This document shows positions 9,480 to 54,589 of a stretch of DNA of 64,000 nucleotides, one piece after another (position 1 is the first letter of the stretch; the number at the start of each line of letters is the position of its first letter). Under the pieces are notes generated by a model, which saw only the letters and a list, made by a program, of their open reading frames with translations, made no database searches and was not told where the DNA came from. The DNA comes from a virus. Where the stretch lies: IMG/VR virus record IMGVR_UViG_3300018876_000008, positions 96,001-160,000 of that record, one strand, 5' to 3'. The translations under genes were made by a program, and so were the position numbers.

Positions 9480-10150
9480 TATAACTCCAAAGTTTCTTCA
9501 ATATATTATATAAGAGATTCATTTATATAGAGTCCATAAGATAATACCCACTCTTTACATATACACAGTAAAAGAAAGGGGTATTGTATGGATATACATA
9601 TAAAGGTTAAGAAAAGGGGGTATCTATATGAGTAAACATATAATCCCTAATAAAAGGGTGTGGAGTATAGTCTATTATATAATACACTACCTATAATTCT
9701 CCGTAAGGAGAAGAAAACCAAAGTGTAGTGTGAGTATAGACTCATATAAGAACACCCTCTTAATAGAAAATCACCCAAAATCACGGTTTCATCTACGAAA
9801 CACTCTACAAAACACCACTTAGAACACCATTAACCGATATATAGGGATGGTGCCCACTAGTATTTCTAAATAGGGGATTCCGACAGTAAGGGAGGGGGTT
9901 ATGACCATTAGTGAACATAATCACCTAAAAGTATAACTAAATGGGGATTTCACCGATGAAAACAAAGATTTTTTAGGTATCTGTCGGAATAAACTCTTTG
10001 GAAATATTATTAAATGGTGTAAAACTAATGATTTAATATACTTAATTAATCATTCATATGCCGGAATCGGTTCCTTCGGACCTCTTTCTCGACCTTCGGT
10101 CGGTCTTTTTTCTTCTAAAAAATTTTTTTTTAACGGGTCCTTCGTCCCGT
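9480..10150 (+). ncRNA. Putative large structured non-coding RNA (ends approximate)
   Basis: ORF-free region with many nested helices, e.g. ATTCCGACAG 9877-9886 / CTGTCGGAAT 9981-9990; TTCTCC-GTAA-GGAGAA; G-U pairs and a GNRA loop favour the + strand. Confidence 0.6.
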
Positions 10151-25824: not shown

Positions 25825-25909
25825 CGGAAGATGTAGGATTCGAACCTACGGTACATTGCTGTACGCTGGTTTTCAAGACCAGTGCATTCGACCACTCTGC
25901 CAATCTTCC
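25825..25909 (-). tRNA. tRNA-Ser(TGA)
   Basis: CTGGT-CTTGAAA-ACCAG arm, long variable arm, discriminator G. Confidence 0.95.
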
Positions 25910-25914
25910 GTCTG

Positions 25915-25988
25915 TGGACCTTGTAGGGCTCGAACCTACGACCTACGCATTATGAGTGCGGTGCTCTAACCAACTGAGCTAAAAGTCC
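25915..25988 (-). tRNA. tRNA with CAT anticodon, most likely tRNA-Ile2
   Basis: Loop CT-CAT-AA; paired G1-C72 and no GGG/CCC anticodon stem, so not initiator; Ile2 versus elongator Met is inferred. Confidence 0.85.
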
Positions 25989-26005
25989 GTTATTCAAAAA
26001 TATCT

Positions 26006-26086
26006 ACTCCACTTAGACTCCGTCTTTCGACTTGTAGGCGTGAGATTTGACGCCTCGTTGTTCGGTTGTTAAACCTATCTAAGAGC
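26006..26086 (-). ncRNA. Putative four-way-junction structured RNA in the tRNA array
   Basis: Closing helix CTTAGA/TCTAAG around GGTT-TAAC-AACC, AGGCGT-N8-ACGCCT and GTC-GAAA-GAC. Confidence 0.5.
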
Positions 26087-26203
26087 GGGGGAGTAGGGGA
26101 TTCGAACCCCCACCTCTTCTCAACAAGCCTAATCGTATCTCGTAACTAGTATGATATTTTCGGCCTTATAGTTGGAGCGTCGTACCACTTTGACTAACTC
26201 CCC
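26087..26203 (-). ncRNA. tRNA-like RNA with enlarged anticodon arm (117 nt)
   Basis: Acceptor GGGGAGT/ACTCCCC, D arm GTC-AAAGTGGTAC-GAC, T arm GGGGG-TTCGAAT-CCCCT; 66 nt between D and T arms. Confidence 0.75.
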
Positions 26204-26211
26204 GTATTTAG

Positions 26212-26285
26212 TACACCCATCAGGATTCGAACCTGAGACCGTCTGCTTAGAAGGCAGATGCTCTATCCAGCTGAGCTATGGGTGC
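26212..26285 (-). tRNA. tRNA-Arg(TCT)
   Basis: TCTGC-CTTCTAA-GCAGA arm. Confidence 0.95.
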
Positions 26286-26357
26286 ATGTGAAAAAGATAG
26301 GGTTCTTTTTTAAAGTTACATAGTTCCAACGCGTATTGTGTAACTCCCTATCTATAG

Positions 26358-26809: not shown

Positions 26810-26846
26810 AAAATAAGAAACCCAAACATTTCTGTTCGGGTCTCTT
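26810..26846 (-). terminator. Intrinsic terminator of the putative tRNA-operon attenuator
   Basis: AAGAGACCCGAACA-GAAA-TGTTTGGGTTTCTTATTTT; G-U pairs and U tract on the minus strand. Confidence 0.85.
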
Positions 26847-26896
26847 CTTCTTCATAGCTTTAAGTCTATTTTTATTATATCATGTTTACCGAACTT

Positions 26897-26968
26897 TTAC
26901 ATAATATTATAGAACCTTATTATTGATAAGCTTCTTAATATTGATATGTATGTTTTCGATTTGTACAT
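26897..26968 (-). CDS. Putative attenuator leader peptide of the tRNA operon (23 aa, not in ORF track)
   Basis: MYKSKTYISILRSLSIIRFYNIM*; 14 of codons 2-18 are exact cognates of the nearby tRNAs. Confidence 0.75.
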   Translation of the reverse strand: MYKSKTYISILRSLSIIRFYNIM

Positions 26969-27004
26969 TTTAAAATAGTCTTTTAATTGTCTGTTTGTAT
27001 ACTA

Positions 27005-27035
27005 CAAATATACTCCATTTATTTCTATTGTCAAA
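27005..27035 (-). promoter_or_regulatory. Bacteroidota-type promoter of the tRNA operon
   Basis: TTTG (27032-27035), 19 nt spacer, TATATTTG (27005-27012). Confidence 0.8.
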
Positions 27036-54205: not shown

Positions 54206-54589
54206 TGGTGGAGGTGGCGGGATTCGAACCCGCGTCTTGCTCGTATTACCCTATAAAGGACTACACGTTTAGGACAATATTGATTCTCAATATTCCGAAA
54301 TATGTGATTGAATTTTTACATCCTCCATCACCAATAGATGTACGACTCGATTTAAGGTTCGGTCGTTTTTCCACCTTTGTAAGACTTCTGTTCCTAGGTT
54401 ATATGTCCCGACCCGTTGTGGTGTAACGTCTTACGCTACAGCCACTTCTTCAGTACGAACAAGTCCGATAGCCTGAAGTTTTGCGATAGTTTCGCCAGAT
54501 AAAAATTGCGTCCATAGATTTAAGTGATAGGATACATCTCACTACGTGCCCCGTATAACTAATTCCGCCAATCAATTCCATTCACCCCC
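54206..54589 (-). ncRNA. ssrA: tmRNA
   Basis: 5' GGGGGTG pairs with 3' CACCTCC-A-CCA including the G3-U Ala determinant; T arm GCGGG-TTCGAAT-CCCGC; tag frame 54431-54496 GETIAKLQAIGLVRTEEVAVA*. Confidence 0.93.

Follow-up and report, generated by a model that had tools for sequence, protein, structure and literature searches.

Phage T5 encodes the tRNA-like RNAs I and II, and in eukaryotes the gammaherpesvirus TMERs and mascRNA/menRNA are tRNA-like processing cassettes that carry a functional RNA at the RNase Z site. The tRNA cluster of phage T4 contains two non-decoding small RNAs, RNA C (species 1, 139 nt) and RNA D (species 2, 119 nt), whose roles are unknown (PMC3014915). Theta ribozymes are minimal HDV-like ribozymes found behind phage tRNAs, where their G1 immediately follows the tRNA 3' end (PMC10879173), and the YrlA-type Y RNAs of bacteria and phages have tRNA-like D and T arms and a conserved Levitt pair and do not decode (PMC4201824). 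In Lak megaphages, tRNAs with 'enigmatic introns' have been reported, with the anticodon and intron-less versions identified (PMC6784885). Oligomerizing RNAs such as GOLLD, ROOL, OLE and the phi29 prohead RNA assemble by kissing loops and palindromic pairing (PMC12990946).

We analysed a 64,000-nt stretch of viral DNA, here called the window (positions 96,001 to 160,000 of IMG/VR record IMGVR_UViG_3300018876_000008), which carries on its minus strand an element of two adjoining domains. Domain A (26087..26203) is a 117-nt tRNA-shaped RNA without an anticodon, recognized by its fold, by Rfam and by homologue comparison, and domain B (26006..26086) is an 81-nt four-way junction delimited by homologue comparison. 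A preliminary description made from the window's letters alone had reported the 117-nt element, which is real but turned out to be half of a larger unit, with domain B abutting its 3' end; the palindromic tip and loop-E-like internal loop of the arm described below are, like B, additions to that account.

A+B resembles the T4 RNAs in being a non-decoding small RNA within a phage tRNA cluster, and A shares with them a position directly downstream of tRNA-Arg, though only in its close clade. RNA C is also like A in keeping a T arm, with long hairpins where the other arms would be; its fold, though, shows no D arm, and RNA D, unlike A, has no T loop. A model of B found no match in the T4 region, blastn of B found no cultured phage, and no homology to the T4 RNAs was found. 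As a separate observation, T4 rnaD (L021:2554-2672, minus strand) contains the words CUGAUGG and GAAAC, which resemble a hammerhead core and stand on either side of a long stem. With YrlA, A has in common the D and T arms, the Levitt pair and the absence of decoding, but the acceptor-like stem of YrlA forms a closed loop that lies between T arm and D arm, whereas A keeps the normal, unpermuted tRNA order. No TROVE/Ro60 gene was found in the record of the window (G000), in 23 related records, all of them fragments, or among the shared neighbours, and the Ro60-binding motif is absent from A and appears in B only as variable tetraloop hairpins.

The Lak tRNAs and A are alike as oversized tRNA-like genes of large Bacteroidota phages (for the window, a probable host assignment), but no excision from A yields a tRNA and its insert covaries as structure. 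Both theta ribozymes and B place a G immediately after a tRNA or tRNA-like 3' end; B differs in having no nested double pseudoknot with a catalytic C in J4/2 and in following non-decoding mimics, not real tRNAs. GOLLD and ROOL often lie near tRNA arrays, as A+B does in the clade of the window, but together with OLE they measure 550-830 nt against about 200 nt for A+B, whose oligomerization is a prediction. The TMERs and mascRNA/menRNA also join an RNA to a tRNA fold, but they are eukaryotic and have no dimerization arm. No Rfam 15 family, GOLLD, ROOL and OLE included, matched A+B beyond the tRNA frame; cultured phages gave only generic tRNA matches and plasmids none. The literature searched holds no description of A+B, while B may be among the unnamed candidates of a viral structured-RNA survey (PMC10690425). 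As far as searched, A+B appears to be a conserved, undescribed phage tRNA mimic with a second domain and a predicted function, and it is probably a kissing-loop oligomer as well.

The tRNA-shaped body and its extended arm

Domain A has an acceptor stem with all seven pairs formed (26197-26203/26088-26094), a C discriminator (26087), a D arm of three pairs plus an A13.C22 mismatch with G18G19 present (26179-26194), and a T arm with a complete five-pair stem and a canonical T loop (26095-26111), confirming the three arms originally reported. The 66-nt insert was confirmed too: it lies between G26 and the T stem, where about 22 nt are expected. The Rfam tRNA model (RF00005) matched A at 38.1 bits (E 8.5e-6), leaving 58 nt of the anticodon arm unaligned, and A has the acceptor, D and T arms and the elbow tertiary pairs of that canonical family, with no 5-bp anticodon stem bearing a 7-nt loop and U33. 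ARAGORN, which had been proposed as a check, left A itself uncalled with the intron option on or off, and at low threshold returned noise. Since single-sequence folding of A was no better than that of shuffles (z -0.4 to -0.7), its structure rests on homologues.

Pattern scans gave eight distinct close homologues, most of them directly after tRNA-Arg(UCU). Across these, 96.3% of the cells of the combined cloverleaf and long-arm structure are paired and five pairs show two-sided changes (two acceptor-stem pairs and three pairs of the new arm), figures matched by 0/500 and 3/500 shuffles, respectively, in a control that is inflated by sequence relatedness; when the structure was slid along the alignment, the paired cells fell to 41-54%. 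The insert is thus a structure under selection. A wider survey of 32 distinct A domains (71-161 nt) found U8:A14 in 31, the D-loop GG in 30 and U54:A58 in every one, while the Levitt pair 15:48 was A15:U48 in 23 and G15:C48 in six, the three exceptions being sequences that the parser probably set out of register. The same 32 domains have 19 different acceptor-stem sequences and A, U or C as discriminator. From these comparisons, the elbow and the acceptor/T helix of A are conserved as a shape while amino-acid identity elements drift, and A is best read as an RNA that is shaped like a tRNA and under selection but has no codon-reading capacity. The idea of a selected tRNA mimic was thus borne out by covariation and elbow conservation.

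In place of the anticodon arm, A has an extended arm (26116..26177) built from three helices, all short, together with a bulge of 4 nt, an internal loop and an apical loop of 13 nt; two-sided changes occur in helices 5 and 6. Among the pairings initially suggested for the insert, the two inner stems covary, and the outermost held only in part (a 2-bp base and a 3-4-bp next helix). The internal loop (26130..26161) sets GAA (26159-26161) opposite AUUA (26130-26133) and is similar to a loop-E/S-turn, of which an AGUA strand is typical; in a sister group the corresponding loop has the canonical AGUA strand facing GAA or GGA, and we infer that the arm contains this three-dimensional motif.

The apical loop carries the self-complementary hexamer ACUAGU (26145..26150), a candidate kissing-loop dimerization site, and homologues have ACUAGU, GCUAGC or GAUAUC at the same place. 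Only 9 of the 135 two-change neighbours of such a hexamer retain the palindrome, which gives two such steps a chance of about 0.004. In a blind test of 22 representative arms, which are not independent sequences and in which misfolding hid several known cases, 13 had an apical palindrome against 5 expected (P ~3e-4). Some relatives are two-armed, and in all five of those inspected, with the loops chosen by eye, loop 1 is the exact complement of loop 2; across three of them (L029, L049 and L035) the hexamer pair co-changes. Departures from this pattern are L037, with a normal-sized arm, and L065, without a clear palindrome. The kept palindromes and complementary loops show that selection acts on loop-loop pairing, which in the single-armed RNA of the window would mean the pairing of two molecules. 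A therefore shows the feature by which kissing-loop dimer RNAs are recognized, loop complementarity that is retained despite sequence change. In the two-armed variants the kiss may be intramolecular, and the palindrome could also pair partly inside its own loop.

The junction behind the discriminator

Domain B starts at position 74, a G, the base after the discriminator. Helix P1 brings the two ends of B together, the hairpins P2 and P4 vary, and the core of J2/3, P3 and J3/4 (26032-26063) is nearly invariant. P1 and P4 covary, two-sided changes occur in 9 of the 18 pairs, and P2 is optional, a third sequence group being without it. Scans for the B core, after removal of duplicates and chance matches, gave 37 distinct viral loci, and in 34 of them B lies directly behind a tRNA-like domain; B stands without one in L030, L075 and L079, while L007, L012 and L015 have A without B. 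Strong copies of B occur once per record.

All 34 A domains continue with G74-C75, as against C74 in 110 of the 112 canonical tRNAs of the same loci, so that the A domains stand systematically apart from the way in which the real tRNAs of these phages are built at the 3' end. Among those canonical tRNA genes, which almost all have C74, the full CCA is encoded in just 20, which suggests that phage tRNAs share a 3'-maturation route that needs the first C alone.

Several matches and resemblances of B were rejected. Exact core matches in four bacterial genomes (L050-L053) have no surrounding structure and were dropped as chance, as were those in L022-L027, L033, L038, L070, L074, L077 and L081. 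The resemblance of the core to 16S helix 34, or to the complement of the 23S peptidyl-transferase loop, was equalled by shuffles (99-297 of 300, E. coli rRNA), and a pairing of the 3' tail of B with the acceptor strand of A showed no covariation by inspection. A T-box-like UGG bulge in P1 of B is possible, with the GG alone conserved.

Other elements were seen at these loci. In eight loci of the third group (L065, L066, L069, L071-L073, L080 and L082), another conserved non-coding stretch, which also appears to be structured, lies about 130-240 nt upstream of B; it shares a short motif with the 3' end of B and had no Rfam match in L065 or L071. Two tRNA-like genes, at L037:5265-5335 (minus strand) and L079:3111-3183, have a UUA triplet at the anticodon position and are possible ochre readers; the one in L037 is the A domain before B, and its T loop is degenerate.

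Genomic setting and a candidate attenuator

The virus record that contains the window is linear, 169 kb long and an estimated 56% complete, which implies a phage of jumbo size. Two genes close to the tRNA array have a type IX secretion C-terminal domain (PF13585), from which a Bacteroidota host is probable. These two adjacent phage proteins (20857-23603, minus strand) are in themselves unusual phage cargo. ARAGORN found eight tRNAs on the minus strand of the window, including tRNA-Arg(UCU) (26211..26285), which is the upstream neighbour of A in the close clade, and a tRNA with a CAU anticodon (25914..25988) downstream of A+B, both on the same strand as A+B. A phage-encoded tmRNA with its CCA encoded (54206-54589, minus strand) was found by Rfam and missed by ARAGORN.

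The link to tRNA arrays is particular to some clades: at 13 of the 37 B loci a real tRNA lies no more than about 700 nt away, and the remaining 24 lie outside tRNA arrays. Comparison of the neighbours gave no protein family next to A+B that is common to all sequence groups, which argues against a cis-acting leader and against a dedicated adjacent partner, and no partner protein for A+B was found. The 56% of the phage genome in hand contains no gene for Ro60, RtcB, a CCA enzyme or RNase Z. Twelve RNA-labelled marine and salt-marsh runs contain 27-43% of the words of 25900-26300, but since that stretch includes two real tRNAs this overlap does not count as a sign of expression.

Further irregular elements were noted in related arrays. 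In L001 a 120-nt hairpin-rich insertion (9540-9660), without a counterpart in the window, lies between tRNA-Leu and tRNA-Arg. L001 (9950-10185) and L018 (9195-9390) have a tRNA-like 5' half, formed by a D arm and a stem-loop with a GUU triplet, that is followed by an insert of about 150 nt with no T loop; its 3' part is present in L018 too, and the element is possibly another RNA or a decaying gene. Within the 25-tRNA array of L009 (7375-7700 and 8036-8540, minus strand) there are more T-arm elements uncalled by ARAGORN, some of them with long or altered anticodon arms.

Upstream of the tRNA operon that contains A+B we identified a candidate attenuator (26815..27034, minus strand), made up of a promoter-like site (27007-27034), a 23-codon leader ORF (26897-26968) and a terminator (26815-26846). 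The array's own tRNAs read 14 of the 22 leader codons against a background of 23% (p 5e-5), a hexamer after the leader stop is complementary to the 5' arm of the terminator, and this organization is preserved in L001 and, in part, also in L018. This arrangement suggests that in this phage A+B is made when the array's tRNAs run short. The co-induction with real tRNAs initially envisaged is therefore plausible in the clade of the window, where the attenuator precedes the array, but 24 of the 37 loci have no real tRNA nearby.

Possible functions of the two-domain RNA

We consider it somewhat more probable than all else that A+B is a single uncharged phage non-coding RNA of about 200 nt, a tRNA mimic that dimerizes by kissing loops and presents B. 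Under this proposal the tRNA shape would serve as a scaffold and not for decoding: RNase P would cut the 5' end of A+B, and the tRNA fold would stabilize the RNA. The first helix of B would stack below the acceptor stem and cap that end, so that no CCA is added and the RNA is never charged. Two molecules would then join tip to tip through the kissing loop, in an orientation set by the loop-E kink, and the dimer would offer two elbows and two B cores to a host protein, itself dimeric or oligomeric, that takes part in handling tRNA or in the surveillance of translation; this is the weakest step. A+B might in this way resist nucleases and serve as a decoy or inhibitor at a time when tRNA is being depleted by host defences, an anti-defence role that is suggested by context and belongs to the same weakest step.

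A more tentative proposal, which we hold possible, keeps the tRNA chassis that dimerizes via the former anticodon arm and has B, with a fold not yet described, act as a catalyst or bind a ligand, for instance as a novel class of self-cleaving ribozyme or by binding the 3' ends of host tRNAs; A+B would then be a new kind of RNA device with which the phage counters defences or controls translation.

It is rather unlikely that A serves as a processing cassette, directing host RNase P and RNase Z so that a cut at 73/74 frees the ~81-nt B with a defined 5' end, after which A may gain CCA and a job of its own. The fixed G74 register without CCA would suit this, RNase Z is known to cleave CCA-less precursors 3' of the discriminator (PMC1874595), a Bacteroides control genome has an RNase Z-family match where the 56% of the phage genome has none, and A alone and B alone each occur in a few loci. 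However, the conserved extras of A (loop E and the complementary loops) would be superfluous for processing, P1 of B begins 1-3 nt from the cut site, and in these phages C74 is what the real CCA-less tRNAs carry, which means that host processing does not require G74.

Unlikely, too, is that B would be a self-cleaving ribozyme of undescribed fold that cuts at 73/74 and leaves A with a 2',3'-cyclic phosphate, unchargeable. The G at +1 in 34/34 has the geometry of theta ribozymes (PMC10879173), and the invariant unpaired core of B, with peripheral hairpins that are variable or missing, also speaks for this reading. Against this, B has no HDV-like nested pseudoknot, its P1 pairs with the far 3' end, a descriptor search gave 0 matches (with the start mis-set in ~10/32), no Rfam ribozyme matched at E up to 10, and B, unlike a general 3'-end maker, is not found directly behind canonical tRNAs.

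We regard it as improbable that A is simply a decoy, acting as a monomer, for anticodon nucleases or for toxins that modify tRNA. The appeal of this reading lies in the intact elbow and in the location within an operon whose predicted trigger is a shortage of tRNA, but A offers such enzymes no anticodon stem-loop, the arm sequences differ widely across relatives, and neither B nor the loop complementarity would be explained. As a pure decoy for anticodon nucleases, a role the preliminary description had put forward, A is unlikely, with the anticodon loop gone and the most conserved part, B, lying outside the element then described.

The other early suggestion, a tRNA with a short protein-spliced intron, is very improbable: although unexplained introns are reported in Lak phage tRNAs (PMC6784885) and the intron mode of ARAGORN forces calls on some homologues, those forced calls disagree among near-identical RNAs (Ile, Val and Trp), and no excision restores an anticodon arm, any single excision from the window RNA and its closest homologues giving at most 3/5 anticodon-stem pairs and no U33, while the 5-bp stem present in a sister group simply continues into a longer helix; in addition, G74 replaces C74 and 10 records, all fragments, have no RtcB.

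That A is a tRNA pseudogene in decay, with an insert acquired by chance, can be given almost no credence, for despite the unremarkable single-sequence folding energy and the absence of the element from some close relatives (L018 and L019, which have other sequence there and not the normal tRNA that decay would predict), the reading fails on the covariation, with compensatory changes in the acceptor, the arm, the Levitt pair and B, and the element is found in at least three divergent sequence groups.

The A+B family adds a small, covariation-defined example to the stable non-decoding phage RNAs represented by T4 RNA C and D, for which a role has been missing for decades. Three of its features are separable: the acceptor end with its proposed cap, the putative kissing loop, which can be swapped, and the core, which is invariant. 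For annotation, it shows that the oversized phage "tRNAs with introns" returned by annotation tools can be another class of RNA. Should B prove to be catalytic or to bind a defence protein, it would bring both a new fold of RNA and a new way in which aquatic jumbo phages use RNA against host defences.
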